DNA of 64,000 nt from an uncultured Kiritimatiellota bacterium (GTDB lineage: Bacteria > Verrucomicrobiota > Kiritimatiellia > RFP12 > DVOR01), in the NCBI GenBank assembly GCA_944389585.1, contig CALXMW010000007.1, forward strand, positions 11,372 to 75,371. The letters run 5' to 3'. Within the stretch, counting starts at the first letter, position 1, and the number at the start of each line of letters is the position of its first letter. Positions 1-26,248 of this stretch are shown here, piece by piece. The notes below the pieces were generated by a model, which saw only the letters and a program-made list of their open reading frames with translations, was not told the DNA's origin and did no database searches. A program made the translations under genes and the position numbers.

Positions 1-788
1 GTGGCCTCGACGAGGATGCCGCCCTTGAAGACGAGGGCGGTGCCGTCGTCGGCGGCGATCGTGGCGTCCACGCCGTTGATGCCGTTGACGGAGAGGCCGC
101 CGGTGATGGGCAGGTAGTCGCCGACGCCGACGGCGGAGCCCTCGGTGGCGATGATTTTGGCGAAGCCGGACTGCTTGGGGAAGTCCGCGGCGAAGGTGTA
201 GACGGCGCGGGTGTCGGCGCTGTCGTTGGGGTTGCCGACGGAGGTGGGATAGCTGCAGGCGTAGGTGACGTCGGCGAAGGCGTCGTCGAGGGTGGCGGTG
301 CCGACCATGGCCACCTGGCTGGCGGCGACGGGCGCGGGGGCGAAGGCCACCCAGAGGGTGAGGGTGCTCTTGGTCGTGTCCGCCGTGGAGGGGGCGACGG
401 TGAGGTGGACGATCTCGATTTCGCCCTCGTATTCGGGCGTTCCGGAGAGGAGCCCGATGGAATTGACGTAGCCCTCCAGCGCCCAGACGCCGTCCTCGCC
501 CAGGTCGTCGAGGGCGGCCTCGAGGGCGTTGACGCGGGAGCCGAGGGTGTCGGCGATGCCGGCGAGGTCGGCGACGGAGGCCTCGACGGAGGCGACCTGG
601 TTGGTGGCGGCGTTGACGGAGGCCTTGGTGGCGACGGTGTCCAGCGGCCAGATGGTCTGGCCGTCCGTGACGAGTTGGTAGCGATAGGGCGTGGGGGGCG
701 CGGGCGGCGTCTCCGCCGCGGACGCTGCGCGGCTCCCACAAAGGACACAAAGGGCCGCAAAGAGCACAAAGTGTTTCATGGTTTTCAT
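1..788 (-). CDS. Prophage protein with signal-peptide-like N-terminus (3' end outside window)
   Basis: Manual translation from ATG 788: MKTMKHFVLFAALCVLCGSRAASAAETPPAPPTPYRYQLVTDG..., open to the window edge. Starts 5 nt after the stop of the upstream gene. Confidence 0.75.
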   Translation of the reverse strand, partial: MKTMKHFVLFAALCVLCGSRAASAAETPPAPPTPYRYQLVTDGQTIWPLDTVATKASVNAATNQVASVEASVADLAGIADTLGSRVNALEAALDDLGEDGVWALEGYVNSIGLLSGTPEYEGEIEIVHLTVAPSTADTTKSTLTLWVAFAPAPVAASQVAMVGTATLDDAFADVTYACSYPTSVGNPNDSADTRAVYTFAADFPKQSGFAKIIATEGSAVGVGDYLPITGGLSVNGINGVDATIAADDGTALVFKGGILVEA

Positions 789-793
789 CGGCT

Positions 794-2449
794 TCAGTCC
801 TCCACGGGTTTCATGGCGAAGGTTTGGAAGGTGTCGTCCCAGCCCCAGCGGTAGGTGACGCCGCCGGCGGTGGCCTGGACGGAGGAGAGGGGCGCGTAGA
901 GGCCCTCGATCTGGGCGAGGAGCTGGGTTTTGGCGGCGGCGACGGCGGCGGCGATGGCGGCGTCCACCTCGCTCTTGGTGTAGGTCTGGGCCTTGGGGTA
1001 GACGTCGGCGCTGTTGGCCTTTGGGGCGACGGCCTGGGCGATGGCCTGGTTGCGGGCGACGACCTCTGCGGCGATGGCCTGCGCGGTGGCGGTGGAGAGG
1101 GCGTTGTAGGCCTGCTGGACATTGGCCTGGATGGCGGCATTGGTCTGCTCGGCGGTGCTGTAGGCGCTCAGGTCGACGGTGGCGCCGAGGGCGTCCCAGG
1201 CCGAGCCCGTCCAGGCGACGTTCTGGCCGTCCTCGTCCTGGACGTTGTAGACGTCGCCGACGGCGGGGGCGGAGGGGAGGGCGGAGCGGGTGGCGACGCT
1301 GCCCTTGTAGTGGTAGACCCCCGCCACCTTGCCGTCCACCTCGGCCTTGGTGTACGTCTGCGCCTTGGGATAGACGTCGGCGCTGTTGGCCTTCTGGGCC
1401 AGGGCGGCGTCCAGCCCGGCGACCTGCGCGGTGGTGTGGGTGTGGGTCTTCTCTGCTTTCTGGTCGAGGGCGGCCTTGACGGCCTTGGAGGAGGGGACCC
1501 AGTCGATGGCGTCGGCGGAGTTTGCGTGGGCGATTGTCTCGCGGTCGATTTGGAGGGCGAGGGTGACCTTCTGGACGTAGCCGACGGACTCCGGGGTGAC
1601 GGTGACGGGCTTGGTGGCGGCGAGGTCGCCGATGCGCAGGATGGACTTCGGCTGGTTTCGGTTCTGCGGGCCGATGAGGTAGCGCTCCACCACCGTCTCA
1701 TCCGCGCCGAAGGCGGTGATGGACTCGCGCTGATACATGGTGACGAAGGCGTCGTCTTCGGGCTTTGCGCCCTGCTTGCCGGAGACGGCGAAGCCGCCCT
1801 GGGTGCCGTTTTGGGTGACGAGTGCGGTTTTGCCGTGGGTGTCGGGGTCGGCGTGTTCGCCGGGGGCGAGGAGGGGGACGCAGCGCTTGGCGTGGCCCTG
1901 CAGGGCGGTTTCGAGTGCGTTGTCGGCCTGTTGCCGGGCCTGGGTCTCGTCCTTGAGGGCGTCCTGGAGTTTGTCGAGCTGGGATTCGGGGAGGCGCTGT
2001 GCGGGGGTGAAGCCCGGGGAGGGGGCGAGGTCGAGGGCGCCGTAGGCGCGGAAGGAGGCGCCCTGGGGGGTGGTGAGGGCGAGGAAGAAGCGGACGCGGT
2101 CGTGGCCGGTGTCGCAGTCGGGGTCCCAGGTGGCGGAGAGGGTTCCGGCGGCGGGGTCGTATTCGCCGGGCTTTTCGTACCACTCGTCCTCGGCCATGCC
2201 GTCGGTCTGCCAGCGGAGTGCGACGGTGGCGCCGGAGAGGCCGGTGAGGGGCTGGGCGTATTGGGTGGGGGTGCAGGCGAGGGTGAAGGATTCGCCGTGG
2301 AAGGCCCGCGCCCGGAAGGGGCGCGGGGCGGAGACCTCGGTCTGCCAGGCGAAGCGCAGGGGCGCTTCGCTTCGTGAATCGAGAATCGCGAATGGCGAAT
2401 CGTTCGCCCCTTGCGGGGCGTCCAAGGCGGTTGCGTCCGTAGCGTCCAT
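794..2449 (-). CDS. Putative tail fibre / baseplate-associated protein
   Basis: 551 aa with RBS (AAGGAAAAG). Duplicated KANSADVYPKAQTYTK motif and a YKGSV..ALP..GDVYNV...WTGSAWDALG segment typical of fibre proteins. Lies downstream of the head genes. Confidence 0.55.
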   Translation of the reverse strand: MDATDATALDAPQGANDSPFAILDSRSEAPLRFAWQTEVSAPRPFRARAFHGESFTLACTPTQYAQPLTGLSGATVALRWQTDGMAEDEWYEKPGEYDPAAGTLSATWDPDCDTGHDRVRFFLALTTPQGASFRAYGALDLAPSPGFTPAQRLPESQLDKLQDALKDETQARQQADNALETALQGHAKRCVPLLAPGEHADPDTHGKTALVTQNGTQGGFAVSGKQGAKPEDDAFVTMYQRESITAFGADETVVERYLIGPQNRNQPKSILRIGDLAATKPVTVTPESVGYVQKVTLALQIDRETIAHANSADAIDWVPSSKAVKAALDQKAEKTHTHTTAQVAGLDAALAQKANSADVYPKAQTYTKAEVDGKVAGVYHYKGSVATRSALPSAPAVGDVYNVQDEDGQNVAWTGSAWDALGATVDLSAYSTAEQTNAAIQANVQQAYNALSTATAQAIAAEVVARNQAIAQAVAPKANSADVYPKAQTYTKSEVDAAIAAAVAAAKTQLLAQIEGLYAPLSSVQATAGGVTYRWGWDDTFQTFAMKPVED

Positions 2450-2518
2450 CGTTCTTTTCCTTCGCTTGGTTTGTCGCGCGCTTGCCGCGCGTCCGATTCA
2501 CGATTCGCGATTCACGGC

Positions 2519-2950: not shown

Positions 2951-3311
2951 GGTGTGTGTGCTCCCTTCGGTCGCACGGTGAATCGTGAATCGTGAATCGC
3001 GAATCGTTGGTGGGTGGGGCTGCGCCCCACGCCCCTTCGGACGGCCCGCGCACCATTCGCGATTCGCGATTCGCCATTCGCGGGTTGCCCCGCCAGAGGC
3101 CCGTGGAGGGCTTCGTGGGGCTTTGGGGTGAAATCCTGCGCCGAAAATCTTTGCAACGATTCTGCGGGCTTGCAGGGGCCTTTGCAACGGCATTGCGCGG
3201 CGGGGCCGCGCGGAAGCTTGGAAGTTTGGAGACTTGGAAGGTTGGTTTTGGCTTCGCCGGTCGCCCTTCGGGCGCGCCAAGCCTCCAAGCCTCCAAACTT
3301 CCCGACGGCCG

Positions 3312-4220: not shown

Positions 4221-4273
4221 GGCGATGTCCTTTCTGGAAGTTTGGAAGTTTTGAGGCTTGGTTGCCTAGGGCC

Positions 4274-5245
4274 TCAGAGGAGGCCGCGCTCGATGGCGGC
4301 GCAGCGCTCCTCGGGGGTGCGGCAGGCGGCCAGGGGGTTGGCGGGCTCGGCGGGGCGGCGGGCGGCGGCGGCGTTGCAGACGGGGCGCGCGGCGGGCTTG
4401 GGCGCGGGGGCGGGGGACTTGAGGCAGGCCAGGGTGGCCTTGACGGCGTCGCGGTTGGTCACGTAGAGGCGCTTGAAGGCCTCCTTGTTGGCGATCTTGT
4501 CCTTGTTTTCCTCGGCGGCGGCCTCGGCCTCGGCGTTGAGGGCGGCCTCCTGCGCCTCGGCGGCGGCCTGGGCGAGGCCATCGACGGCCTGGAGGATGGC
4601 GGCGTCGTCGGCGTCGGGGCCGAGGCCGAGGATCTCGAGGAGGCGCGCGCGGAGGTCGGGCGCGGCGGGGGTGGGTTCGGTGGTGTCGGGTTCCATGGTG
4701 GTTCCTTTGTTGGGGGTGAAAACGTGAATCGTGAATCGCGAATCGCGAATCGTCTCGGGGTGGGGCTTCGCCCCACGCCCCTGCGGCTTGCCTGTCGCGG
4801 CACGCGGTTCCATTCGCGTGTTCAAGACCGGGCGGACGGGCAGATTGGGCTTGTTGGTGAGGCCGACGGAGACGAGGCGGCAGGGGCGGTCGTGAGAGTC
4901 GAGCTCCCAGACGGGGGAGAGGAAGCGGAGGCGGCGGTTGGAGACGGCGTCGGCCCCCGCGTCGGTGAAGCGGAAGGTGGCCAGCAACCCCTTGGCGGGG
5001 TCGACGCGCACGCGCTGGACCCAGGCCGCCGCCTCGGTGTCGCCCCCCGTCTCGGCGTGGTGCTCGAAGTCGACGAGGACCTCGGGGCGGAAGTTGGCCA
5101 CGACGGCCTCGAAGGCGGCGCGGTCGCAGCGCTGGATCACGCGCTCATCCCCGCGCAGGCCGGGGAAGGCGCCGTAGGGGGAGAGCTGCACCTCCAGCTC
5201 GTCGCCGGGTCGGATGGTCTTGGGAAGGGTCTGCGTCGCGTTCAT
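4274..5245 (-). CDS. Mu-like prophage I protein (head protease plus C-terminal scaffold)
   Basis: LVDFEH, AAAWV, RFLSPV and SVGLTNKP motifs of the Mu gpI family. In-frame internal ATG at 4696 with AAAGGA RBS. Confidence 0.88.
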   Translation of the reverse strand: MNATQTLPKTIRPGDELEVQLSPYGAFPGLRGDERVIQRCDRAAFEAVVANFRPEVLVDFEHHAETGGDTEAAAWVQRVRVDPAKGLLATFRFTDAGADAVSNRRLRFLSPVWELDSHDRPCRLVSVGLTNKPNLPVRPVLNTRMEPRAATGKPQGRGAKPHPETIRDSRFTIHVFTPNKGTTMEPDTTEPTPAAPDLRARLLEILGLGPDADDAAILQAVDGLAQAAAEAQEAALNAEAEAAAEENKDKIANKEAFKRLYVTNRDAVKATLACLKSPAPAPKPAARPVCNAAAARRPAEPANPLAACRTPEERCAAIERGLL

Positions 5246-5311: not shown

Positions 5312-5345
5312 AAAAAACGAGCCGCCCGAAGGCGGCCCGTTTTTT
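5312..5345. terminator. Bidirectional intrinsic terminator ending the early operon
   Basis: AAAAAACGAGCCGCC-CGAA-GGCGGCCCGTTTTTT. Confidence 0.8.
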
Positions 5346-5473
5346 GGAAGCTTGGAAGCTTGGATGTTTGGAAGTTTGGAGGAGCGGAGGAGGTTGGGGC
5401 CCGGGCTGTCGCCTGCGGCGACGATGTGGCCGAAGGGGTGTGGGGCGGAGCCCCACCGCCTAGGGCCAAGCCT

Positions 5474-5791
5474 CTAAGCCTCCAAACTTCCCGCCTTCGC
5501 CTCGCCGAGGCGGACGCGGATGCCGGAGAGCTCGGCGGAGAGGCGGTAGGCGCGGTCGGTACCTTTGGCGATGAAGGCGCGGTGGGCCTTGAGGGCGTCG
5601 AGGAGCTCGGCCTCCTTGGCGAGTTGCCTGGCGCGCCAGTCGCGGTAAGCGTCGAGGCGCTGCTCGATTTCCTTGGCGCGCGCCAGGAGGCGTTGACGCT
5701 CTGCGCTGTCGCGCGGCGAATCGTGAATGGCGAATCGTGAATCGTTCGCCCCTTGCGGGGCGTCGGAGCTGTTCTGGCCGGATACTTGCAT
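5474..5791 (-). CDS. Small coiled-coil phage protein
   Basis: MQVSGQNSS..., GAGGG RBS, last gene of the early operon. Confidence 0.55.
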   Translation of the reverse strand: MQVSGQNSSDAPQGANDSRFAIHDSPRDSAERQRLLARAKEIEQRLDAYRDWRARQLAKEAELLDALKAHRAFIAKGTDRAYRLSAELSGIRVRLGEAKAGSLEA

Positions 5792-5883
5792 GGTTTTCCC
5801 TCGGTTTGCCTGTCGCGCGCTTGTCGCGCGCACGATTCGCGATTCACGATTCACCATTCACGGCGGCGTCAGCCGCCTGCCCG

Positions 5884-6435
5884 TCAGGCCTCCTCCGTCT
5901 TGGGCTCGCAGTAGAAGCGCTCGGTCTGGGCGACGCGCAGGCCGCAGGCGGCGAGGTCCTCGGCGTCGAGCGCCTTGCCGGCGACGGCGGCCAGGAGCGC
6001 GGCCTTGTCGAGCTCCTCGGTGGTGCGGACGTATTGGGGGAGGCGCTCCTTGACCATTTGGAGGGCCTGCTCGGCCTTGACGCGGGGGCGGAGGCGGACG
6101 GCGGGGTTGCCGAGGCGCCAGCCGATGGTGCCGTGGGTGAGGACGAGGCTGCGCTTCTCGCCGAAGGCGGCCTTGTGGAGCTCGGCCCAGGAGGCAATCT
6201 CCTCGGCGAGGGCCTTTTGGGCGGCGTCGAGGGCGTCGAGGTCGGCGGCGTAGCGGTCGCGGACGGCCTTGAGCTCGGCGTCCATCTTGGCGGTGAGGGC
6301 GCGGCGGCGGGCGTCCTTGAGGGCCAGCTCGCCCATCAAACGCTCGACGTCGTCGAGCGTTTGGGGCGAATCGTGAATCGCGAATCGCGAATCGTTGCGC
6401 CCCTTCGGGGCGTCAGGTGTGGGTTTCGTTTTCAT
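5884..6435 (-). CDS. gam: Host-nuclease inhibitor Gam
   Basis: Coiled coil followed by HGTIGWR, YVRTTEELDK and FYCEP, the Mu Gam pattern. Confidence 0.88.
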   Translation of the reverse strand: MKTKPTPDAPKGRNDSRFAIHDSPQTLDDVERLMGELALKDARRRALTAKMDAELKAVRDRYAADLDALDAAQKALAEEIASWAELHKAAFGEKRSLVLTHGTIGWRLGNPAVRLRPRVKAEQALQMVKERLPQYVRTTEELDKAALLAAVAGKALDAEDLAACGLRVAQTERFYCEPKTEEA

Positions 6436-6502
6436 GGTGGGATGTCCTTTCTGGAAGTTGGGGGTGTTTGTCGCGCGGCTTGCCGCGCGGGCGATTCGCG
6501 AT

Positions 6503-7162
6503 TCACGATTCGCGATTCACGAGCCTGACGCGGAAGAGGCGGGGAAGGTCCTTGCCGGGGGCGCGCCGGGGCGTCTTGAGCAGCGCGTTCACCGTCAGCA
6601 CGTAGCGGGCGTGGAGGTCGAAGGCCAGGCGCATGGGCCCGCGGGAGCCGTCGGGGAGCTCCTCCCACTTGGCGAAGGGGACGCGGCGGAGGAGGCGGCG
6701 GCGGTGGGTGTCGAGCATCTGGAAGAGGCGGTGGAGGCGGGGGAGGTCGAGGTCGAGCCACCACTCCTCGCCCTCGGCGTGGAGGGCGTCGCGCCAGCCG
6801 GCCTGCGCGAGGACGCCGCGGAGGTAGGGGATGGCGCCGGGGGTCCATTGCTCGGCGAGGTCGGGGAGGGCTTGGGCGATCTCGAAGCACTGGCGGGCGC
6901 ATGCCTCGGCCATCCTGGCCAGGCGGCGGCCCTCGGCCGTTCCCCACCGCATGGCCTCGCCGTGGCTCTCGGCCAGGCGGCTGACGTGGGCCATCAGGCG
7001 GTCGAAGTCGGCGCCGGAGCCGACGGCCTTGAGGCTGGGGACGCCGCAGGCCTCGCGGACGATCTCGTGGCGCCAGGCCTCGCGTTCGCCGGGCGGGATG
7101 CACTGCCGGTCGCACGCCTGTTGGAAGACCTTGAAAAAGGCGACTCTCTGTTTGTCCGTCAT
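6503..7162 (-). CDS. GemA/gp16-like phage regulatory protein
   Basis: N-terminal WRHEIVREACGVPSLK..DFDRLM resembles GemA-like proteins. AAAGGAG RBS. Stop codon is supplied by a heptamer array. Confidence 0.45.
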   Translation of the reverse strand: MTDKQRVAFFKVFQQACDRQCIPPGEREAWRHEIVREACGVPSLKAVGSGADFDRLMAHVSRLAESHGEAMRWGTAEGRRLARMAEACARQCFEIAQALPDLAEQWTPGAIPYLRGVLAQAGWRDALHAEGEEWWLDLDLPRLHRLFQMLDTHRRRLLRRVPFAKWEELPDGSRGPMRLAFDLHARYVLTVNALLKTPRRAPGKDLPRLFRVRLVNRES

Positions 7163-7301
7163 GGTTCACTCCTTTCAGTCGTTCGCGCGAATCGTGAATC
7201 GTGAATCGTCTCGGGGTGGGGCTGCGCCCCACGCCCCCTCGTTGCTTCAATCCTCATTGTGGTATCCTTTTGCATGGTTTGATTCAGCATTTGGAGAAGA
7301 G

Positions 7302-7652
7302 ATGAAAACGTACCGTGACTTAGAGGCTTGGCAGGTCGGGATGGACTTGGTGGAGGCTGTCTATCACCTGGCCCGGCGACTTCCCGCCGAGGAACGTTAT
7401 GCGCTGTCGGACCAGTTGCGCCGGGCGGCGGTCTCGGTGCCGGCCAACATCGCGGAGGGCTACGCCCGGAACTCCCCGGCGGAGTTTCGCCGATTCGTGC
7501 TGATTGCGGCGGGGTCGTGCACGGAGGTGCAGACGCACCTGCTGATTTGCGAGCGCGTCGGGTTGCAAACGCGTGAGCAGACGCGCCCCGCGCTGTTGCT
7601 GACCGACCGGCTTGGCAGAATGCTCCATAAGTTGGCCTCCTCGTTGGGCTGA
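7302..7652 (+). CDS. Four-helix-bundle protein (23S rRNA IVP / TIGR02436, Avd-like fold)
   Basis: MKTYRDLEAWQ...EERYALSDQLRRAAVSVPANIAEG...FRRFVLIAAGS..EVQT signature. GGAGA RBS and TGgTATCCT -10 at 7260-7268. Confidence 0.92.
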   Translation: MKTYRDLEAWQVGMDLVEAVYHLARRLPAEERYALSDQLRRAAVSVPANIAEGYARNSPAEFRRFVLIAAGSCTEVQTHLLICERVGLQTREQTRPALLLTDRLGRMLHKLASSLG

Positions 7653-7697
7653 CGATTCGCGATTCACGATTCACGATTCACGGAGTTGGTGCGCGCG

Positions 7698-8783
7698 TTA
7701 GCGCGTCACCAACTCATACGCGCGGAGGACGTGGGGCCAGGCGAGGGGCTCGCCGCGCTTGGCGGCGAGGTTGCCGCCCAGGGCGAGGAGCTTGGTGTAG
7801 CGGTTGAGGCGCATATGGCGGAAGGTGGGGAGGGCCTCGGGCGGGGGCTCGGGCAGGCCGTAGGCCGCGGCCACCTTGAGGAGATCGCCCCACGGCAGGT
7901 CGTCGGGGAGCACCAGGCGCTTGATGCACCGCTCGCTGAACTGCTCCAGCCACCCCTTGAGGGGGCCCTGGATGAGGTCGTGGTCCAGCGCGCGGGTGCC
8001 GCAGACGACGAGCCCGCAGCCGGAGAGGTCGTGGAGCTCGCGGATATACTCCATGATCTTCATGGCGGCATGGCGGCCCGAGGAGATGGCGAGCTGGTGG
8101 AGCTCGTCGACAATGAGGAGGGACTTGGAATCGAGCGCCTGTGCGACGCGGCGGCGGAGTTGCTCGGGGGTGGCGCGGGTGGTGACGCCGCAGGCCTCGG
8201 CCAGGGCGAAGAGGGCGGTGCGGAAGCCCGGCGCCGCGGGCATCCGCACGTAGCGGACGACGTACTCCGAGCGCCGCTTGTATTCCAGCAACGCCGTGGT
8301 CTTGCCGAGCTGACTGGGGCCGACGACGATGGCGGGCATCTGGTGGATCAGCGCCAGGTCGCAGGTCTGGCGGATTTTCTCCCAGACGCTCGTCTCCACG
8401 AAGGCGGCGCTCGCCAGCTTGGCGCGCTCGGCGCGGAGGTGGCGGTATTGCCGGATCTTCTCGATGACGTTCTGCCAGGAGCCCTGATAGGCGCCGTTGA
8501 GGACGCGGCTGACGGTGGAGGCGTTGTAGCCGATGCGGCGCCCGGCCTCGGCGTAGCTGAGGCCCTCGGCGCGCATCTCGCCGATGAGCCAGAGCACCTG
8601 CGCGCGGTCGTCGCCGGTGAGGGTGCCCTCCTCCACCAGCGGCGCGAGCGCCCGGCTCACGGTGTCCGCGCTCATGAGGGCGAGGCCCGTGGGCGGCTTC
8701 GCCGCCGGTGAATCGTGAATCGCGAATCGCGAATCGTCCCGCCCCTGCGGGGCGACGGATTGCGCTGTGTGTGTCGTGTCCAT
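7698..8783 (-). CDS. MuB-like transposition AAA+ ATPase
   Basis: N-terminal HTH, Walker A GPSQLGKT, Walker B LLIVDE, directly after the transposase. Confidence 0.9.
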   Translation of the reverse strand: MDTTHTAQSVAPQGRDDSRFAIHDSPAAKPPTGLALMSADTVSRALAPLVEEGTLTGDDRAQVLWLIGEMRAEGLSYAEAGRRIGYNASTVSRVLNGAYQGSWQNVIEKIRQYRHLRAERAKLASAAFVETSVWEKIRQTCDLALIHQMPAIVVGPSQLGKTTALLEYKRRSEYVVRYVRMPAAPGFRTALFALAEACGVTTRATPEQLRRRVAQALDSKSLLIVDELHQLAISSGRHAAMKIMEYIRELHDLSGCGLVVCGTRALDHDLIQGPLKGWLEQFSERCIKRLVLPDDLPWGDLLKVAAAYGLPEPPPEALPTFRHMRLNRYTKLLALGGNLAAKRGEPLAWPHVLRAYELVTR

Positions 8784-8798
8784 TGTGTACTCCTTGGG

Positions 8799-11057
8799 TT
8801 AGATCAAATCGTCCATGGTGGCGCCGGCGAGGCCGTGGCCGGAAGCTTGGAGGCTGGCCGTGGAAGGTTTGGCGCGTTGCGCCTGCACGGGAAGGTTGGA
8901 GGCTTGGCTTTCGGGGCGGGGGTCGGCCCGTCGCCCGTCAGGGCGCATCGATTCGCGATTCACGATTCGCGATTCACCCTGCGCCTCCGCGAGGAGGTGC
9001 TTGTTCCACGCCACATCGGCCTGGTGCTCCGCGGCGCGGCGCTCGGCCCAGGGGAGGATCTCGCGGCGCTCGAGGGCCTGGATCTTGGCGCGGATCTTGA
9101 GGTTGGCCGCCACGCCCTCGGGGTCGTCCTGGTGGCTGGGGGCGAGGACGGGGGCGAGGCCGAGGTAGCGCCAGGAGCCGTCCTTGGCGGGCTCGGCGAC
9201 GTAGGCGACGAGCGGTTCGAGGGGGTTGACCCAGACCAGCGCCTCCTGGCCGCGGCGGAGGAGCCGCTCCTCGCCCTCGGGGGTCCGGACGACGCCGGCG
9301 ACCGTGGCGGCGAAGTCGATGGCGGGGTCCTTGACGCGGAGCTCCACCTTGGCGGAGACGGTGGCGCGCATGGCGAGGCCCTCGCCGAGGATGAGGGGCA
9401 TGAAGGCGCGGTCGGCGCGGATGACGTCGCCCTCCCGCCGCTCCCACGCCTCGGCGGGGGAGAGGCGGCGGGCGCGGGTGAGGGCGGGGTCGGCCTCGAG
9501 GGCGGCGCGGACGGCGGCGGCGACGGCGGGGGGCAGCCCCTCGAGGTCGGCCAGCGGCCGCCAGGGCTCGCGGGGGCCCAACCGCCAGGCGGTCTCCACG
9601 AAGCCCTGTTCCGCCCACCCCTCGAGGGCGTGGTCGGTGCGGCCGTTGAGCTCCGCCACGGCCTCGGCCACCAGCGCGGCATAGTCCTGGAAGGGGAGGT
9701 AGGGCCAGCGGAGGCGGGCGGGGAGGTCGGGGTCGCGGGCGGCGAGGGCGCGGCAGGCGCGGAGGAGGGCGGCCTCGGCCTTGTCGCGGGCGTAGAGGTC
9801 CTCGGGCGCGGCGTCGCGGTCCTTGCCGACCTGCCCGGGCACGTCGGCCAGCAAATCGTGGAGGAGGCTGTGGTTGCCTTCGAGCCGCGCCTTGAAGCGG
9901 AAGTTGCCGCGGGGGCGGCCCTCCCAGAGGCCCTGCGCGAGAGGCTTGGAGAGCTTGCCGCCGGCCAGGAAGCGGACCTTCCCGCCTGTCGCCGCTTCCA
10001 CGGCGGCGGCGAGGCGCTTGTCGGCGGCGGCGGTGCCGTGCTCGCCCATCACCGTGGCCCCGCCGGGGGCGTAGCCCTGGACGATGAGCCAATAACCGAT
10101 GAGGTAGGGCATCATGCGGGCCATGACGACCTCGCGCGTGCCGTCGTCGCGGCGCCGGATGGGCTTGAGGAGGTAGCTGCGGAAGCCGGTGGCCACGTCG
10201 AGCAGCGCGAGCTCGACGCACCGCTCGGCGGGGGCGCCGTCGGCCGCGCGGACCTTGACGTCGTGCCACATGTCGTCGATCTCGACGATCTGCCCGCGCA
10301 GGAGCCCGGCGCGCGTGCGGGGGACGGAGGGGAGGAGGGCGCTCGCCGCCAGCGTCCCCTGCCGCGCGGCGGTGAGCGCCCACTTGGAGGGGAGCAGCCG
10401 CATGAGGTTGGCCTTGCTCCACCCCGCGGGGAGCAGCACGCCCGCGCGGTAGGGGCACACGGCCGGCGCCTCGCGCCCGGGGAACTCCGCCGCGTAGAGC
10501 TGCCGCCACGTGCCCACCCCGGGGATGGCCTCGCCCGCGCGGAGGTGGGCGAGGAGCTTATCCCAGGCGCGGCTGGAGACGCGCTGATTCTGGAGGACCA
10601 GGCCGCGCCAGAACTGGACGAAGGCGGCGTTGGCGGCGACCCCCGCGGGGGCGGCGTGGGCGGCCGCGGGCACCAGCGCCTCCCACCCGCGGCCGGGACG
10701 CTCGGCCTCGCGCCGACGCCACGCCGCGGCCTTGCGGTAAAGACTCTTCAGGCTCAGGCCGCGGAGCCCCGCGTGCTCGGCGGCGAGGCGTGCGGCGACG
10801 AGCGCGCGCCCCTCGGGCGGGGCGGCGAGGAAGGCGTGCATCACCCCCACCCATTCCCGCAGCTCCCCCAGCTGACGCGCCGTCAGACGCCCCGCCAGCC
10901 GCGCCCAGTCCTCGGCGGGGATGGCGCAGGGCGGCTGCGCCGCCGCGTGAATCGTGAATCGCGAATCGTGAATCGCTTCGGGGTGGGGCTCCGCCCCACA
11001 CCCCTTCGTCCCCTCGACCCCGAGGGCGACCAAGCCGTTTGCGTTCACTGGTTCCAT
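8799..11057 (-). CDS. MuA-like transposase
   Basis: Start MEPVNA with AAGGAAAGG RBS. Integrase-core motifs EIDDMWHD, LLDVATG, EHG and KARLEG. Paired with a B-like ATPase. Confidence 0.87.
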   Translation of the reverse strand: MEPVNANGLVALGVEGTKGCGAEPHPEAIHDSRFTIHAAAQPPCAIPAEDWARLAGRLTARQLGELREWVGVMHAFLAAPPEGRALVAARLAAEHAGLRGLSLKSLYRKAAAWRRREAERPGRGWEALVPAAAHAAPAGVAANAAFVQFWRGLVLQNQRVSSRAWDKLLAHLRAGEAIPGVGTWRQLYAAEFPGREAPAVCPYRAGVLLPAGWSKANLMRLLPSKWALTAARQGTLAASALLPSVPRTRAGLLRGQIVEIDDMWHDVKVRAADGAPAERCVELALLDVATGFRSYLLKPIRRRDDGTREVVMARMMPYLIGYWLIVQGYAPGGATVMGEHGTAAADKRLAAAVEAATGGKVRFLAGGKLSKPLAQGLWEGRPRGNFRFKARLEGNHSLLHDLLADVPGQVGKDRDAAPEDLYARDKAEAALLRACRALAARDPDLPARLRWPYLPFQDYAALVAEAVAELNGRTDHALEGWAEQGFVETAWRLGPREPWRPLADLEGLPPAVAAAVRAALEADPALTRARRLSPAEAWERREGDVIRADRAFMPLILGEGLAMRATVSAKVELRVKDPAIDFAATVAGVVRTPEGEERLLRRGQEALVWVNPLEPLVAYVAEPAKDGSWRYLGLAPVLAPSHQDDPEGVAANLKIRAKIQALERREILPWAERRAAEHQADVAWNKHLLAEAQGESRIVNRESMRPDGRRADPRPESQASNLPVQAQRAKPSTASLQASGHGLAGATMDDLI

Positions 11058-11136
11058 GTTGCCTTTCCTTCGCTTGCTTTGTCGCGCGGCCCGCCGCGCG
11101 CCCGATTCACGATTCACGATTCGCGATTCACGGCGT

Positions 11137-11949
11137 TCACGCATCCGCGTGGACGACCTCATGGAGGAGGTCGATGGCGTCGCGGAGGGTGTGGAGGTCG
11201 GTGGGGGTGAGGGCGGCGTGGCGGCGCTGGCGCACGATGAGGTCGGAGAGGCGGTCGAGGGGCTCGGAGAGCTCCTTCCACGCGATCTCGGGACTCGCAT
11301 CGAGGGCGGCGGCGAAGTCCTTCGCCTTCCGCCCCGCGCCCTCGCGCTTCCCGCCCAGGCGGAGGATGGACCGCTGACTGCGGCCCGCGAGAAACTCGCG
11401 GACCTTGTCAGGGTCGGGTGAATCGTGAATCGTGAATCGCGAATCGTTGGACGCCCCCTGCGGGGCGTCGGGCAAGGCTGTGGCCGCGCCGCCCTCCGCC
11501 TCGTCGGCCAAGGCCAGCGCCGCGACCGTCTTCTCCGCCACCGCGAGAAAACGGCAAGCGGTCTTGTAGTTGATTTCAGGGCAGTGGATGGCCAACCACC
11601 CTTTCAGCCCCATCCCGCGGTTCCAGCCGTGCATGTCATCGAAGCTTTTCCCCGCAGTCTCACGTGCGAGAACGCGGGAGGAGCCCTCTATTTGCAAGGG
11701 TTCGGCGGTTTGCCCGTCGCCCGTCAGGGCGTACGATTCACGATTCGCGATTCGCGATTCACCGGCGGCCGTCTCGGCCGCCTCGGCGTCTTCGAGGCGC
11801 TCTTTCACGGCGCGGAGCATCATGCCGAATTGGTAGGCCTCGTAGAGGCCGTCGAGGGCCTTTTGGTACTGCCGGGTCAGCATCGCCACGTCCTCGGCGG
11901 TGGGCTCGAGGGATTGGGGCTGCAGGGTCATTGCAAGGGTGTTGTCCAT
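11137..11949 (-). CDS. DUF3102-like phage protein with in-frame repeat insertions
   Basis: G..LRAVKERL...LKGWL...INYKTACRFL pattern, AAAGGA RBS. Confidence 0.55.
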   Translation of the reverse strand: MDNTLAMTLQPQSLEPTAEDVAMLTRQYQKALDGLYEAYQFGMMLRAVKERLEDAEAAETAAGESRIANRESYALTGDGQTAEPLQIEGSSRVLARETAGKSFDDMHGWNRGMGLKGWLAIHCPEINYKTACRFLAVAEKTVAALALADEAEGGAATALPDAPQGASNDSRFTIHDSPDPDKVREFLAGRSQRSILRLGGKREGAGRKAKDFAAALDASPEIAWKELSEPLDRLSDLIVRQRRHAALTPTDLHTLRDAIDLLHEVVHADA

Positions 11950-12107
11950 CTTTGTGTCCTTTTGGAAGTTTGGAGGCTTGGAAGTTAGCCGTGGAAGGTT
12001 TGGCGCTTTGCGCCTGCACGGGAGGCTTGGTTTCTCCGTCGCCCCGCAGGGGCGCACGATTCACGATTCGCGATTCACGATTCACGGGGCGTCTAGGCGC
12101 CTCGCGC

Positions 12108-14310: not shown

Positions 14311-14742
14311 ATGAAAAGCTTGTGCGGCGTTTTGGCGGCGCTTCTGCTCTTGGGGTGCGAGGCGCCCACTGTCCCCTCGCCCACCGCCGTCTCCCCGGCG
14401 CCTGCGGCGGCGGATGCCGCCCCGTCCTCCGCGGAGGGGGTGTTCGCCGCCGCGATCCGCGGCCGGCGGCCGGTGGCCTTTGTGTACAACGGGGTTGCGC
14501 GGGTGGCGCACCCGCACCGCCTGGGCCCCAGCGCGGCGGGGAACGGGAAGGTCCTCGTGCGTGCGTGGGAGGTGTCGCGCGGGGGCGAGGCGACGGGGAC
14601 GTGGAAGCTCTACGACGTGGCCAAGATCTCCGCCCCGCGCCTCCTGCCCGGCGCGCCCTTCGCCCCCGCCCCCGGCTACACCCCCGCCGACCGCGCGATC
14701 CCCGCGCCGTCGGCGGAGGTGCCCGCGCCGCAGGCGCGGTAA
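14311..14742 (+). CDS. Lipoprotein with WYL-like domain
   Basis: Lipobox LLLLG-C and Pro/Ala linker, then AIRGRRPVAFVYNG..RVAHPHRLG...VRAW...WKLYDVAKI...F....GY.P.D. Confidence 0.65.
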   Translation: MKSLCGVLAALLLLGCEAPTVPSPTAVSPAPAAADAAPSSAEGVFAAAIRGRRPVAFVYNGVARVAHPHRLGPSAAGNGKVLVRAWEVSRGGEATGTWKLYDVAKISAPRLLPGAPFAPAPGYTPADRAIPAPSAEVPAPQAR

Positions 14743-14907
14743 ATGGTGAGGGGTAAATGGTAAATGGTGAGTGGCGCGTGGTTTTTGAGAAAGGAAGAGA
14801 CGATGGGCAAATCGCATGCAGCGCCCGGGCCGAAGGGCGGGGGAGGATAACTGTTGCCCTGGCGGATGGGATGTGAGATAATGAAGTGAGTGAGAAAGGA
14901 CGTGCAT

Positions 14908-16490: not shown

Positions 16491-18746
16491 TCAGTTCTCG
16501 CCTTTCGTATGATACCTTCCGCCGACCTTCCGGCGCTCAACCTCTTTGTCGCTCAATTCCCCATAGTCCGTGATCAGCAGGCGGCCGGTGCGGTGTTTGG
16601 TGAGCACGGCGACGGAATTGCCGTGGATGAGGTAGAGCTTGGAGCGGGAGCGGTCGTGCTTGTAGGCCTCGCCTTCTTGGAGGGTGTCGACGAGGGTGTC
16701 CTTGGCCTTGGGGTGTTTGGCGAGGATGTGGGCGAGGCCATGGCCGCCGGCGAAGGCGTTGTCTTTGTTGCCGGGCTCGCCGTAGTCGATACCAATCCAG
16801 CCGGTGTCTTGGCGGTAAAGGGCTTTGGGCACGGAGCCTCCGCGCTTGGCCATGAGGTGGGTGACGACGCTGCGGGCACGCGCGGCGTTGGCCTTGGGGT
16901 CGGCGGCAAGCTTGGTCTCATCGAAGGTGCCGTGGGCGTCGCGCTTGGAGGGTGTCTCACCTTCGCGTTGGTGGGTGCCGGGGTGATTGGTCTCGGAGAA
17001 CTTGCCGTTTTCGTCGCGCTTGTATTCCCGGGGGGCGCGGTTGGAGGCGGCTGTCGCCGCCGGTGAATCGTAAATCGTGAATCGCGAATCGTCTCGGGGT
17101 GGGGCTTCGCCCCACGCCCCTTCGGTTTGCCTGTCGCGGGACGCGGCACGATTCGCGATTCGCGATTCACCATTCGCGCTTTCCGCGGCGAAGGTGTCGT
17201 CGAGGAGGGTGCGGATCTGGGCGGCGAGGGCGGGGTCTTCGGGGAGAAGCTCGGGGAGGCGCGCGGCGAGGGCGCGGGCGGCCTCGGGGGAGGGGTCGGA
17301 GAGGAGGCTTTGCAGGGCCTCGGCAAGGGGAGCGCAGTCGCTTTGCAATGCCTCTGCGAGGGCGGCGACCTGCGTCGCCGGAGAATCGTGAATCGTGAAT
17401 CGCGAATCGTCTCGGGGTGGGGCTTTGCCCCACGCCCCTTCGGTCTGACCGTCGCGGGACGCGGCACGATTCGCGATTAGCGATTCACGATTCGCGAAGG
17501 GGAGCGCGCCGAAGGCGGGCACCCCGCCCGCTCCCGCGGGCTCCAGCGCATACCCGGTGCGTTCCTGGAGCTCGGCCTGGGTGACGCGGTAGCCGGCCTG
17601 GACGGCTTTGGCGGCGAGGTCGAAGACCTCGGCGGGGCCGGGGGCGGGCTCGGTCTCGAAGTCGAAGGCGGCGAGGTGGGGGCGGCCGGGGAAGGCGCGG
17701 TCGAGGAGGGTGTCGGTGACGGTGCGGTTGAGGGCGGTGGCGACGGCGGCGGCGTCGCGGCGGACGATGGTGCGCCAGGTCTCCTCGTGGGCGTCGGTGG
17801 CGCCCTGGCCGATGCCGGTGGCGCCGGTGAGGGAGGTGAGCATGCCGCCGGTGGCCATGAGGACGATGAGGCGCTGCTGGTGATCGAGGAAGGCGGTGAA
17901 GGGGTCGGTGCCGCGGGCCTCGTGGGCGTAGGAGACGAGGGAGCCGGCGGGGAGGGCGCCGGAGCCGCCATCGGCGACCTGGGTGGCGGCGGCACAGTAG
18001 TCGGAGACGCGGGCGGGGTCCATGTCGGGCGGCATGGTGATGATGACGGGGGGGATGCCGTAGCGCTCGAGGAAGCGGCCCCAGGCCTTTTCGCCTAGTG
18101 CGTTGCGCAGGAAGATGGGCATGGCGGGATAGTCGATGTGGCGGGTGCGCAACAGGGTGACGATCTCGCCTTCGGGGACGGGGTCGAGGCTGCCGAAGTC
18201 GAGGGTCTCGTCGGCGGAGGGGTTCCAGTGCCAGAGGCCGGTGACGAGGTCGCGGCAGAGGTTCCAGGCGTTGAGGAGCTCGAAGCCGGCGAGGCCCAGG
18301 CCGTCGTCGCTCCAGAGGGGACGGACGTGGGCGTGGCCGCGGAAGAAGGCGGAGGCGAGGCGCTCGATGGCGGGGAAGAGGTTGCGCTCCTCGGCCTGGC
18401 CGTAGACCTGCTCAAGGAAGGCGGCCTGCTCGTCGGCCAAGGCTTGGTCGAAGCCTTTGGCGCGGGCGGCGGCCTTGGGGCGGATGGTCCAATCGAGGTC
18501 GACCAGCGCGGAGGCGCGGCGCTCGGCGCAGATCATGAGCGTGGGGTCGCTCTGCTCGAGGTTCTCGTAGATCCACTGGAGGCGGACGTCGTTGCCGCGG
18601 CGGGCGGCGTCGAAGATCATCTGGGCGCGGCGGATGGTGAGCCCGCGCAGGGGGTTGTAGCTCTCGAGGAAGGCGTTGGCCTCGCGGTCGTGGCGGGTAC
18701 GCACCGCGGTGGGCAGGACGACGGGTCTGGCGGGTTTGGTTTTCAT
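16491..18746 (-). CDS. Mu gp29-like portal (DUF935) with C-terminal extension and PBECR-like domain
   Basis: WGRFLERYGIP portal motif in the first ~410 aa. Tail carries RDENGKF and GGHGLAHILAKH. Follows the terminase. Confidence 0.85.
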   Translation of the reverse strand: MKTKPARPVVLPTAVRTRHDREANAFLESYNPLRGLTIRRAQMIFDAARRGNDVRLQWIYENLEQSDPTLMICAERRASALVDLDWTIRPKAAARAKGFDQALADEQAAFLEQVYGQAEERNLFPAIERLASAFFRGHAHVRPLWSDDGLGLAGFELLNAWNLCRDLVTGLWHWNPSADETLDFGSLDPVPEGEIVTLLRTRHIDYPAMPIFLRNALGEKAWGRFLERYGIPPVIITMPPDMDPARVSDYCAAATQVADGGSGALPAGSLVSYAHEARGTDPFTAFLDHQQRLIVLMATGGMLTSLTGATGIGQGATDAHEETWRTIVRRDAAAVATALNRTVTDTLLDRAFPGRPHLAAFDFETEPAPGPAEVFDLAAKAVQAGYRVTQAELQERTGYALEPAGAGGVPAFGALPFANRESLIANRAASRDGQTEGAWGKAPPRDDSRFTIHDSPATQVAALAEALQSDCAPLAEALQSLLSDPSPEAARALAARLPELLPEDPALAAQIRTLLDDTFAAESANGESRIANRAASRDRQTEGAWGEAPPRDDSRFTIYDSPAATAASNRAPREYKRDENGKFSETNHPGTHQREGETPSKRDAHGTFDETKLAADPKANAARARSVVTHLMAKRGGSVPKALYRQDTGWIGIDYGEPGNKDNAFAGGHGLAHILAKHPKAKDTLVDTLQEGEAYKHDRSRSKLYLIHGNSVAVLTKHRTGRLLITDYGELSDKEVERRKVGGRYHTKGEN

Positions 18747-25787: not shown

Positions 25788-26113
25788 ACACAATCACCCA
25801 CGCAAAGAAAACCGGCAGGCGGGCCGTCGACGAGGAAAAGGCCCCCGGCACAATCACCCACGCAAAGGAAACGGTCAGGGCCAACCCAAGAAAGCCCCCC
25901 GCCCCACAGCCGAAACACCCCTCCACCCAGAACCCTATATAGGGCTCTTCTGGAACCCTACATAGGGCTCCACCGGAACCCTAGCTACGGCTCCCGCCCC
26001 CGCCCCCCAAGGCACGCGCTTTTCACTTGCCCCCGGGCACGGGGGAGAAGTCGCTGCTCGCAAGCAGGACGCAGAGGTGGGGCTCACTTGCCGCCGGGCG
26101 CGGGGGAGAAGTG
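25788..26113. repeat. Cluster of short intergenic repeats
   Basis: CACAATCACCCACGCAAAG x2, GAACCCTAnnTAnGGCTC x3 at 23-bp period, CACTTGCCnCCGGGCnCGGGGGAGAAGT x2. Confidence 0.75.
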
Positions 26114-26248
26114 AGCGGGGCGTGGGCCCAGGCGGGCGGGGTTTCGCGCCCCGCCTCTTTTTTCGCCGGGCGGGGTTTCGCGCCGCGCCTCTTTGTTTCC
26201 CGGGCGGGATCTGCGGCGGGGCCGCGGGTGTGGTATAATGAAGGCTGA

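Follow-up and report, generated by a model that had tools for sequence, protein, structure and literature searches.

A four-helix-bundle gene framed by inverted heptamer arrays in a Mu-like prophage, and gene-less cassettes with the same arms

The gene-bearing unit and its gene-less relatives

Within the stretch of 64,000 nucleotides analysed here (the window), a small gene lies enclosed between two inverted arrays of heptamers, and the whole unit (7189-7679) sits in a Mu-like prophage, antisense to both of its neighbours, which are on the minus strand (Table 1). The two arms are complementary at 20 of 21 positions. The TGA stop codon occupies 7650-7652, so that the right arm starts on its final base; as called by Tandem Repeats Finder, this arm holds 4.4 copies of ACGATTC and reaches 7682. 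The sequence GAATCGTGAATCG, with at most one mismatch allowed, occurs 57 times in the window, compared with 0.07 occurrences expected from shuffles. Relatives, too, have TGnTAnnnT motifs resembling the candidate promoter in the space that separates left arm and ATG. Scans of 7100-7760 for the sigma-70 consensus and for intrinsic terminators returned 0 promoters and 0 terminators, respectively.

Much of what the first-pass annotation had described at this locus was recovered, namely a complete four-helix-bundle gene, a hairpin with a TGC loop beside the left arm, a ribosome-binding site, and arms of three and four heptamers. Its arm boundaries need correction, however: the left arm had been started at 7187, which is two bases too early, and the right arm had been placed 2 nt past the stop codon whose last base it in fact shares. 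The -10 box that it listed amounts to the extended -10-like motif and was not returned by the sigma-70 scan. Similarly, the antisense position next to the B ATPase stands, this neighbour being MuB-like, whereas the description of the other neighbour (6503-7162) as GemA-like is not supported by Pfam, NCBIfam or PHROGs.

Table 1. Coordinates of the gene-bearing unit, its prophage neighbours and the cassettes of the same arm type in the window
Feature	Position	Strand	Remarks
Gene-less cassette	2376-2513		Loop bears RBS and ATG of a 551-aa tail-repeat ORF
Gene-less cassette	2980-3079		100 nt, wholly intergenic
Half-cassette	4726-4826		Single intact arm; read through within protease/scaffold ORF
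Gene-less cassette	5718-5859		Loop bears RBS and ATG of ORF 5477-5790
Mu Gam gene	5884-6435		
Gene-less cassette	6368-6518		Gam translation start between its arms
Unnamed ORF	6503-7162	-	On the unit's other side
Left arm, GAATCGT x3	7189-7209	+	Tandem Repeats Finder: period 7, 3.0 copies, 100%
Core hairpin 1, GGGGTGGGGC-TGC-GCCCCACGCCCC	7213-7237	+	Sequence, fold
Extended -10-like TGgTATCCT	7260-7268	+	Candidate own promoter, inferred from sequence
Ribosome-binding site GGAG	7293-7296	+	5 nt 5' of ATG
Four-helix-bundle gene (PF05635/TIGR02436)	7302-7652	+	ATG at 7302; 116 aa and stop
Right arm, ACGATTC x4	7652-7679	+	Shares last base of stop codon
MuB-like gene	7698-8783	-	AAA_22/TniB/HTH; phrog_296 'DNA transposition protein'
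Gene-less cassette	8710-8975		At A/B junction; also contains octamer arrays
Gene-less cassette	10949-11129		Contains likely start of MuA-like transposase gene
Cassette	11420-11760		Both arms in frame within ORF 11137-12057
Solo arm	12056-12083		Right type
Cassette	17065-17175		111 nt, in frame (37 aa) within portal ORF
Cassette	17383-17493		111 nt, in frame (37 aa) within portal ORF

The contig carries 25 arrays: the pair around the gene, 10 pairs without a gene, and 3 solo arms; 11 of these 13 other cassettes and solo arms of the same arm type fall inside the window. The earlier count of about ten other cassettes with the same arms and no cargo gene was therefore of the right order. The gene-less pairs on the contig measure 100-341 nt, end in terminal inverted repeats and are multi-copy, and they share a common layout (arm, hairpin 1, hairpin 2, arm); the layout of gene-bearing cassettes is arm, hairpin 1, gene, (hairpin 2), arm. 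The hairpin type seen at 7213-7237 also adjoins the left arm in gene-less cassettes. Cassettes are placed at prophage gene junctions, and six prophage ORFs apparently start in cassette loops, with a good ribosome-binding site in all three that were inspected by sequence. In-frame read-through of cassettes is established; those in the portal ORF are stop-free, the units that bear TGA having been altered in the reading frame.

The encoded protein matches the PF05635 profile with 122.3 bits (cut-off, 33.8; E = 1.2e-35) and the TIGR02436 profile with 116.4 bits (cut-off, 24), and its residues 4-97 match PDB entry 2GSC (XCC0516, five chains; E = 1.4e-22). Judged by these matches, it appears to be a single-domain relative of a solved four-helix-bundle ring. 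The blocks S-[IV]-P-[SA]-N-[IV]-A-E-G and G-S-x-x-E are conserved in it, and S45, P47, N49, E52, G53, G71 and E75 are invariant in an alignment of 17 sequences. Its Pfam matches are limited to PF05635 and bAvd-like, the latter scoring 18.3 bits, under the cut-off of 40, and a Y1 (HUH) transposase match is not among them. PF05635/TIGR02436 is a very large family that has solved structures and no assigned function. We know of no nuclease, recombinase or polymerase motif in PF05635, and the protein alone therefore cannot explain movement. The 2GSC protein is a homopentameric toroid according to the passage of Warrier 2016 that cites Lin 2006. The gene itself is under purifying selection, with a dN/dS of 0.24 against the copy in a related genome (G023) and of 0.03-0.24 across family gene pairs (one misaligned pair, L029-L036, was left out).

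In the predicted RNA fold of 7180-7690, the two arms are paired in both the minimum free energy and the centroid structure; the fold z-score of the whole element is -3, those of cassettes range from -5 to -7.7, and the host genome has an RNase III gene. When the arm mismatches were sorted by the strand on which they would leave a G.U wobble, the counts were 17 versus 14, with 28 transversions (in the prophage, 10 versus 6, with 10), and in one cassette of the related prophage G007 every unit is mismatched at one same position. Given this absence of G.U bias and this repeated mismatch, perfect RNA pairing does not appear to be what is conserved. The RNA libraries found in a search of sequencing runs contained only 0.07-0.17 of the words, and all four runs compared consisted of contigs. 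One RNA-library contig spans 7405-7598 at a depth of 3.4, and such a contig cannot show transcription, strand or ends; the low depth over 7210-8211 in two RNA libraries comes from contigs only and carries no evidential weight.

Association of gene and arrays across bacteria and viruses

To place the locus among its relatives, we compared the flanks of homologous genes with shifted control positions (n = 71). Strict inverted tandem pairs were found at 28 of the 75 loci with full flanks, drawn from the best 80 of 597 relatives (a best-scoring sample and not a random draw), and at none of the 71 controls; the period was 7 in 91 of the 93 arrays so detected. The strict detector is blind to degenerate arrays, which inspection by eye showed in almost every one of the 21 loci examined from the 'no array' group, and a lag test was therefore used instead. 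Lag 7 was the best lag upstream in 66 of 71 loci and downstream in 60 of 71 (controls, 5 and 10). A lag-7 identity of 0.7 or more in either flank was reached by 67 of 71 loci, belonging to many phyla, versus 1 of 71 controls, bearing in mind that loci from one genus are kin and that detector thresholds were set after the data had been seen. An inverted-match score of at least 12 was obtained for 50/71 loci and 0/71 controls. Among loci on IMG/VR viral contigs, lag-7 flanks were present in 26 of 32 and the inverted match in 23 of 32. The arrays also have a polarity: G-rich arms account for 49 of the 54 upstream arrays, and C-rich arms for 39 of the 46 downstream ones. The enrichment of inverted short-period arrays around homologous genes, which the first-pass annotation had put forward as a check on its proposal, is thus borne out, and the association of gene and arrays is established as a general one.

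It is equally established that each paralogue has a unit of its own. This genome contains three PF05635 genes above the cut-off and a divergent fourth below it, each framed by inverted arrays of its own unit (GAATCGT, GGAGAAC, the octamer GGAAGCTT and the nonamer GTCCCAGTG), and all four units recur elsewhere in the genome in copies that enclose no gene. The paralogue with GGAGAAC arms lies at G000:C3:224283-224597. In five further genomes, too, every paralogue had its own unit. Moreover, the repeat period (7, 8 or 9) follows the protein subfamily. Octamers flank the gene at 4/4 loci of the octamer clade; for the suffix-domain subfamily (TIGR04258, 'four helix bundle suffix'), to which period 9 belongs, strict inverted nonamer pairs were found at 4/8 loci and flanking heptamers at 0/8. 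Finally, the arms are far better conserved than synonymous sites: they are identical between loci L025 and L020 at a dS of 0.36, and the unit is unchanged between L034 and L001 at a dS of 1.1.

The distribution of the arrays is not the same in every genome. In one other genome the unit is present at the gene only, and dispersal is therefore not universal. Three genomes of the same genus (G009 and G016, both 93% complete, and G001, 88%) have GAATCGY arrays and no PF05635 match, so that arrays persist without the gene. In X. codiaei, a GGGAWTC-type array precedes one of the two PF05635 genes, and the pattern has 218 matches genome-wide.

Presence, absence and arm exchange at orthologous sites

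Insertion polymorphism of the cassettes is established. The portal cassette at 17065-17175 is absent from all three DNA-aligned orthologues (G006, G007 and G023) and from four more that were aligned as proteins, the portal loci L139 and L140 having been compared by DNA alignment; its flanks are too diverged to define a target-site duplication. The site of the second portal cassette (17383-17493) is occupied in relatives, by cassettes bearing other arms. In G007, the closest syntenic prophage, the arms around the Gam start (the site of 6368-6518) are missing, the ORF adjoining the element contains an additional cassette, in frame and about 102 nt long, and the junction between B and the next gene holds a different, gene-less array cassette. 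In G023, a GAATCGT-armed copy of the gene occupies another phage junction than in G000. The comparison of filled and empty sites suggested by the first-pass annotation turned up a gene-less B junction in G007, and among the related prophages compared none had the gene without arms.

Variation was also seen between samples, in which arm copy number differs by single units. Contigs from other samples, a DNA run among them, skip a 104-nt cassette segment at the half-cassette 4726-4826. We considered RNA excision as the source of the joint from 4721 to 4826 and rejected it, since the joint is also present in the DNA run and has 20 other letters between its ends; it is a DNA variant. At orthologous junctions of near-identical prophages, the arms differ and the core hairpins, ribosome-binding site and start codon are kept, so that the process is not simple cut-and-paste; arm exchange around conserved core hairpins occurs at fixed junctions. 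The gene-less cassettes behave like MITE/RPE-type elements, and the notion of a mobile unit with non-autonomous derivatives, which was one of the two forms of the original proposal, gains support from these presence/absence polymorphisms.

Interpretation and comparison with known systems

We lean towards reading unit 7189-7679 as the gene-bearing 'master' of a protein-coupled repeat element of the 23S rRNA intervening sequence (IVS) kind, accompanied by non-autonomous derivatives, and give this somewhat better than an even chance. Under this scheme, the PF05635 protein would recognise the repeated units in the arms that frame its gene, at about one unit per subunit, and the inverted arms, with about four units on each side, would make the whole element palindromic. 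A read-through transcript would fold into a stem of some 21-28 bp, of the type that serves as an RNase III substrate, and such a stem would make insertion in transcribed spacers tolerable. The gene-less cassettes, consisting of arms and two core hairpins and mostly some 100-150 nt in length, would then be the non-autonomous derivatives, lodged in intergenic junctions and in ORFs. We infer the binding of protein to repeats, the processing by RNase III and any part played by the protein in the spread or maintenance of cassettes. Our results support the original proposal that gene and palindromes make up a single system; this inference withstood both the array-enrichment test and the search for armless genes. 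Against the reading of the unit as a master copy stand the lack of a known catalytic motif in PF05635, the arrays in genomes without the gene, the unit confined to the gene in one genome, the missing G.U bias and the arm differences at orthologous junctions. In addition, if the promoter does lie inside the arms, the element's own mRNA would be without the left arm, and cutting by RNase III would damage those cassettes that are translated within ORFs.

Alternatively, the arrays and hairpins may be cis-regulatory modules of the phage or its host (T7-like intercistronic RNase III stems, translation-initiation cassettes, or iterons for some regulator), with the four-helix-bundle gene a mere passenger. 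We consider this unlikely, although the junction placement of the cassettes, the ORF starts in their loops, their strong stems, the presence of RNase III and the persistence of arrays in genomes without PF05635 are all in its favour, as is the proposal, made in the part of Aklujkar 2009 dealing with the paired 4x heptamer/octamer sites of Geobacter, that these bind a global regulator. A passenger, however, would not have arrays around it at 67 of 71 loci from many phyla, nor would it have a private unit for each paralogue or a period set by its subfamily. Furthermore, junction cassettes are dispensable, as illustrated by the armless Gam start of G007 and by the portals that lack 17065-17175.

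A further possibility, which we regard as somewhat less likely again, makes the gene the mobile entity, with the arrays as landing pad or scar. Either a small selfish ORF would insert by preference at the centre of palindromic array cassettes already in place, or the arrays would arise at its ends during insertion or repair; in both cases the protein would have no sequence-specific relation to the units. The gene-less and gene-bearing layouts fit insertion as well as deletion, the strict polarity of the arms could be a mechanistic scar, and the unit copy number slips singly. This is difficult to reconcile with a period that tracks the protein subfamily, with the private unit of each paralogue, and with arms kept far beyond synonymous sites; in some genomes, moreover, the unit occurs at the gene alone, and there was thus no prior pad there.

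That the protein acts like Avd in concert with a reverse transcriptase, the arrays being products or templates of reverse transcription, is highly improbable, and we reject it for this genome: the four-helix fold is common to both and the G-rich units running towards the element are reminiscent of templated repeat addition, but the bAvd-like match is weak and below its cut-off, RVT_1 has no match in the whole genome (93.6% complete), and no reverse transcriptase adjoins the gene.

The reading of the unit as the master of a protein-coupled element can be set against several known systems. Avd, the accessory protein of diversity-generating retroelements (DGRs), has a four-helix-bundle fold and forms a pentameric ring, and PF05635 relatives have this fold and ring in common with it. 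DGRs, however, comprise a reverse transcriptase with template and variable repeats, all of which are absent here. The Omega repressor of pSM19035 binds 7-bp heptads, direct and inverted, with one protein unit per heptad; it is a ribbon-helix-helix protein, the fold of which is unrelated to the four-helix bundle, and the likeness is one of analogy only. In REPIN-RAYT systems, the RAYT gene is flanked by inverted repeats that are also dispersed as short non-autonomous palindromes, with one family per paralogue. The gene described here likewise lies between inverted repeats that recur in the dispersed copies, but RAYTs are Y1 transposases acting with REP hairpins, whereas our protein has no catalytic motif known to us and its repeats are tandem units of 7-9 nt. 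Rickettsia palindromic elements (RPEs) and MITEs are short, multi-copy palindromes, variable in site and translatable in frame within genes. The gene-less cassettes resemble them in being short, palindromic, multi-copy, site-variable and, within ORFs, in frame and stop-free; they differ in their tandem heptamer arms, their cognate protein gene and the swapping of arms around core hairpins.

Several reports have described arrays of tandem heptamers, in cyanobacteria, Xanthomonas, Geobacter and Beggiatoa, but none has assigned them a partner protein. The sections of the respective papers on these repeats describe arrays of GGGAATC in Xanthomonas and of GGGGAYT in Nostoc (Rehm 2015), four copies of GGGACCG and paired octamer/heptamer sites in Geobacter metallireducens (Aklujkar 2009), and tandem TAACTGA in Beggiatoaceae (MacGregor 2015). 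As described there, these arrays have the same geometry as ours, with at least about four units, often in convergent inverted pairs, intergenic and at times intragenic; the main texts of the three papers contain no mention of an S23 or four-helix protein. Nor did we find in the literature a statement of a general link between PF05635 and arrays, only its pieces (the Coxiella IVS heptamers and the Xanthomonas and Geobacter arrays). It is tempting to speculate, and we would put the chance at a little under even, that PF05635 proteins are the missing trans partners of tandem 7/8/9-mer arrays in a pan-bacterial class of protein-coupled elements, including the STRR-type arrays, the Xanthomonas GGGAATC arrays and the Geobacter sites. 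If this is true, a ring protein reads one unit per subunit and its subfamily sets the repeat period, and elements of this class colonise rRNA (as IVSs), operon spacers, phage genomes and ORFs, with arms that can be rewritten in place. The present data bring an orphan family, the partnerless heptamer arrays and the S23p ORF together under a single, directly testable hypothesis, and the system provides natural sets of orthogonal protein-repeat pairs, several to a genome. In the phage genome described here, gene junctions, and even coding regions, are organised around cassettes, and gene calling is affected by start codons inside cassettes and by ORFs fused through them.

The S23p ORF has been regarded as enigmatic since the 1990s. 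It is carried by intervening sequences of 23S rRNA in Leptospira, Coxiella, Brucella and Haemophilus, inserted at helix 25 or 45. These IVSs and unit 7189-7679 have PF05635 in common, and in both an ORF lies inside terminal inverted repeats that pair. In the account of the Coxiella IVS given in Warrier 2016, the terminal stem is 28 bp long, and RNase III cleaves it at the tandem heptamers that precede S23p, there being three to four GACAGAT heptamers in the stem, depending on the strain. The 'new' repeat-bounded element of the first-pass annotation is accordingly not wholly new, in that its anatomy is that of S23p-bearing 23S IVSs, down to the heptamers in the 28-bp stem of Coxiella. The differences concern setting and state. 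The IVS sits in the 23S rRNA gene, whereas our unit lies between protein-coding prophage genes, in antisense orientation; unlike the IVS, it has an apparent promoter-like element and ribosome-binding site of its own and shares its contig with 13 gene-less copies or solo arms; and while the Coxiella ORF has been reported to be decaying, the gene of unit 7189-7679 is maintained by purifying selection.

The gene-bearing element and its prophage setting

The source genome (G000) comprises 26 contigs (1.95 Mb, 69% G+C), of which C7 holds the window at positions 11372-75371; a sequencing-run search located the same stretch in chicken-gut metagenomes. We confirmed that a complete four-helix-bundle gene lies here between inverted heptamer arms, and RNA folding closed the whole unit (7189-7679) by its paired arms. 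The product matches TIGR02436 ("four helix bundle protein"; 116 bits, cut-off 24) and the solved Xanthomonas protein XCC0516 (2GSC, five chains; E 1.4e-22), and its best outside relative is in an uncultured Kiritimatiellaeota MAG. The right arm, which the first-pass annotation had placed 2 nt past the stop codon, in fact begins on that codon's last base. As for the -10 box and RBS reported there, an extended -10-like sequence and a GGAG are visible, but a consensus promoter scan of the element region returned no promoter.

The flanking genes belong to a Mu-like prophage and run on the opposite strand, leaving the four-helix-bundle gene antisense. By a rough ORF heuristic applied to 68 related loci, 31 have the gene in the same direction as both neighbors, and 9 have it antisense to both, as in the window. 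The neighbor previously labeled GemA-like had no match in three profile libraries.

Features of the element, its prophage and related loci (bare coordinates refer to the window; C1 to C3 are contigs of G000)
Feature	Position	Strand or placement	Basis or remark
Left arm, GAATCGT x3	7189-7209	upstream of ORF	sequence, Tandem Repeats Finder
G+C hairpin	7213-7237	between left arm and ORF	sequence
Extended -10-like TGgTATCCT	7260-7268	upstream of ORF	sequence
GGAG	7293-7296	upstream of ORF	sequence
Four-helix-bundle ORF, complete, 116 codons	7302-7652	+	PF05635 (23S_rRNA_IVP), E 1.2e-35
Right arm, ACGATTC x4	7652-7679	first base is the stop codon's last base	sequence, Tandem Repeats Finder
MuB-like ATPase (B), neighbor		opposite strand	AAA_22/TniB, phrog_296
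Gam; Mu protease I; major-head-like protein			profile matches
Mu-type portal; terminase; transposase			profile matches (transposase weak)
Gam (MKTKPTPDAPKGRNDSRFAIHDSPQ...); an ORF; B; 551-aa tail-repeat ORF; others	5477-5790 (the ORF)	start inside cassette loops	
Octamer arrays	3212-3300, 4235-4251, 5344-5380, 5470-5500, 8850-8930, 11961-11986		
PF05635 gene, GGAGAAC arrays	G000:C3:224283-224597		
PF05635 gene, octamer GGAAGCTT-family arrays	G000:C1:120699-120899		
Divergent TIGR04258 "four helix bundle suffix" + TIGR02436 gene (L004), inverted nonamer GTCCCAGTG-family arrays	G000:C2:82350-83610	outside window	

Gene-less cassettes and their turnover

The window contains 57 occurrences of the arm motif where 0.07 would be expected. 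Contig C7 carries 25 arrays, all between positions 5758 and 28864, which resolve into the pair that encloses the gene, ten gene-less ones (inner distance, 48 to 290 nt) and three solo arms, in keeping with the earlier estimate of about ten cassettes with the same arms and no cargo gene. A regular-expression scan placed 3 of the genome's 27 arrays off this contig, one of them adjoining a second portal fragment. The motif was found in 7 of 24 other genomes of the genus and in none of 16 from other families of the order, and lay in related prophage DNA wherever its setting was inspected.

The basic gene-less cassette consists of four units, two successive hairpins and four inverted units, and such cassettes fold with paired arms (z, -5 to -7.7). 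On the operon strand, the loop of several cassettes supplies the next gene with its ATG and a good RBS, and translation of that gene continues through hairpin and arm. The portal ORF contains two internal 111-nt cassettes, each translated in frame as 37 residues, in which the units that could give TGA are changed; the protease/scaffold ORF reads through a half-cassette. Within the portal ORF (16491-18746, minus strand), the Portal_Mu match (residues 58-398) is followed by the two translated cassettes and then by a C-terminal part with a weak, below-cut-off match to the nuclease-like PBECR1 (E 6e-4). Both arms of cassette 11420-11760 are read in frame by ORF 11137-12057 (minus strand), which has no Pfam match; they bracket a coding segment of ~95 residues. 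Tandem Repeats Finder also reported repeats at 25921-25994, 26133-26208 and 47713-47825 (periods 23, 34 and 18/36 nt, respectively).

In a syntenic prophage of a related genome, G007 (B proteins 97% identical), the junction after B lacks the four-helix-bundle gene and holds a different gene-less cassette, one of whose arms is made of GGTAAAT units and the other of octamers; homology restarts precisely at the RBS of the following gene. In G007 that gene contains one more in-frame cassette, about 102 nt long. Arms stand on both sides of the Gam start in G000 and are missing there in G007; the following junction has its hairpin, RBS and ATG in common between the two prophages, with both arms of GTGARCR type in G007 and GAATCGY in G000, and one junction further there are octamers in G000 and GAATCGY units in G007. 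Portal cassette 17065-17175 is missing from three related genomes (G006, G007 and G023) and from four more distant orthologues. The other portal site is filled in all four aligned genomes around a common core hairpin; its arms consist of GAATCGY units in G000 and of another heptamer in G023, and G006 and G007 have octamers there. G023 also has a GAATCGT-armed gene, again antisense, between other phage-like genes.

Between samples, arms vary in length by a single unit, and a 104-nt cassette segment is missing from some contigs, at the DNA level too. The differences of exactly one 7-base unit, seen in contigs of sequencing runs X5 and X9, are a CGATTCA inserted at position 2493 and, over 7152-7680, 7 gap positions within a 536-nt contig.

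Arrays around related genes

The other PF05635 genes of G000 are likewise framed by inverted short-period arrays, each of another unit, and gene-less copies exist for every unit family, some of them nested one inside another. Across 28 loci in the genus, which are kin, the flanks are built alike, and no fewer than eight different units occur among them. The nonamer GTCCCAGTG family has about 38 arrays dispersed in G000, and inverted nonamer framing, with other units, recurs at three more of the seven same-genus L004 orthologues. Octamer arrays (GGAAGCTT/GGAGGCTT) occupy several prophage junctions; in the octamer-framed gene the profile match ends at position 67 of 106, where a run of eight Gs marks an apparent frameshift. 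GGTAAAT, the left arm of the G007 cassette after B, also forms an array at 14734-14782. A further nonamer family, CACAAAGGG, for which no cognate gene was found, and "onion" structures, with heptamer, nonamer and hairpin modules symmetrically nested, occur at window 737-771 and on other contigs (C3:71300-72180, C2:7353-7745 and C4:130338-130796). At four same-genus loci (L015, L024, L036 and L037), PF05635 genes lie in longer-period arrays (period ~24) that alternate a short unit with small hairpins and resemble miniature CRISPR arrays.

The wider sample comprised the best 80 of 597 relatives, from one-genome-per-species contigs of many phyla. Among these loci, a strict detector found an inverted tandem pair at 28 of 75 full-flank loci (0 of 71 control intervals shifted by 900 nt) and at least one array at 55 (controls, 5); 91 of 93 arrays had period 7. 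Degenerate arrays escape this detector. In a lag test of 71 loci, lag 7 scored best among lags 5 to 9 in the upstream flank at 66 loci (control, 5) and in the downstream flank at 60 (control, 10); a value of at least 0.7 was reached in one or more flanks at 67 loci (control, 1) and in both at 45 (control, 0), and the two flanks were inverted copies (score of at least 12) at 50 (control, 0). The proposed enrichment of inverted short-period arrays beside homologues is thus present in this sample. From IMG/VR, 26 of 32 nonduplicate viral-contig loci reached 0.7 in at least one flank, and 23 had inverted flanks. Both samples consist of top-scoring relatives rather than a random selection, and the detector thresholds were chosen with the data already in view.

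A proposed protein-repeat system and its known relatives

The repeat period tracks the protein subfamily: octamers occur at all four loci of one protein clade (L003, L030, L038 and L040), while the eight suffix-domain loci comprise four strict inverted nonamer pairs and one one-sided octamer array, with no heptamers at the gene in any of them. Units differ between paralogues of one genome, as seen among the four in G000 and in five additional genomes. Purifying selection acts on the gene (dN/dS, 0.03 to 0.24), and the arms are better conserved than synonymous sites; those of loci L025 and L020 are identical although dS is 0.36, and L034 and L001 retain their unit although dS is 1.1. Polarity is fixed: of 54 upstream arrays, 49 are G-richer, and of 46 downstream arrays, 39 are C-richer. 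An arm typically has about four units. The solved relative 2GSC is described, in the part of the source available, as a "homopentamer toroid" (Warrier 2016). Because units are private to paralogues, periods follow subfamilies, both partners are constrained, polarity is fixed and arms of about four units face a five-chain ring, we infer from these sequence features that a ring of four-helix-bundle chains may recognize the tandem units around its own gene. General framing, private units and subfamily-specific periods all support the idea that protein and heptamer palindromes form one system, which is the most likely reading. Gene-less cassettes would then be non-autonomous derivatives of the gene-bearing element. 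Three same-genus genomes retain arrays without any PF05635 match.

RNase III processing of the stem, as in the S23p-bearing rRNA intervening sequence, is a candidate step. The host has an RNase III gene, and arm pairing is strong in silico in element and cassette folds; arm mismatches show no G.U bias, and in one G007 cassette every unit contains a mismatch. Cleavage of this kind would not be tolerated in translated cassettes. We know of no catalytic motif in the protein family, and no reverse transcriptase was found in the G000 genome.

Several such arrays are on record, as far as the sources were available. In X. codiaei, we found that a GGGAWTC-type array precedes one of two PF05635 genes, and the genome has 218 hits to this pattern (reversed control, 0). 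Rehm (2015) described about 186 GGGAATC sites in Xanthomonas, 70 of them convergent pairs, and GGGGAYT arrays in Nostoc; the main text does not mention S23 or four-helix proteins. TAACTGA arrays have also been reported (MacGregor 2015). A figure legend of Altae-Tran (2023) names "23S rRNA IVP" as one of the CRISPR-array-associated domains, and the period ~24 arrays may account for array finders linking the family with CRISPR. Full-text literature with few subscription journals yielded no statement that framing by heptamer arrays is general among PF05635 genes; if upheld by an unbiased census and binding assays, that link would be a substantial finding. The closest precedent is the Coxiella intervening sequence, for which heptamers and a 28-bp heptamer-built stem cut by RNase III are described in the portion available (Warrier 2016). 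The window element shares the overall anatomy of S23p-bearing rRNA intervening sequences but, unlike them, lies outside rRNA in a prophage: it is an IVS-type S23p element with MITE-like offspring in a phage.
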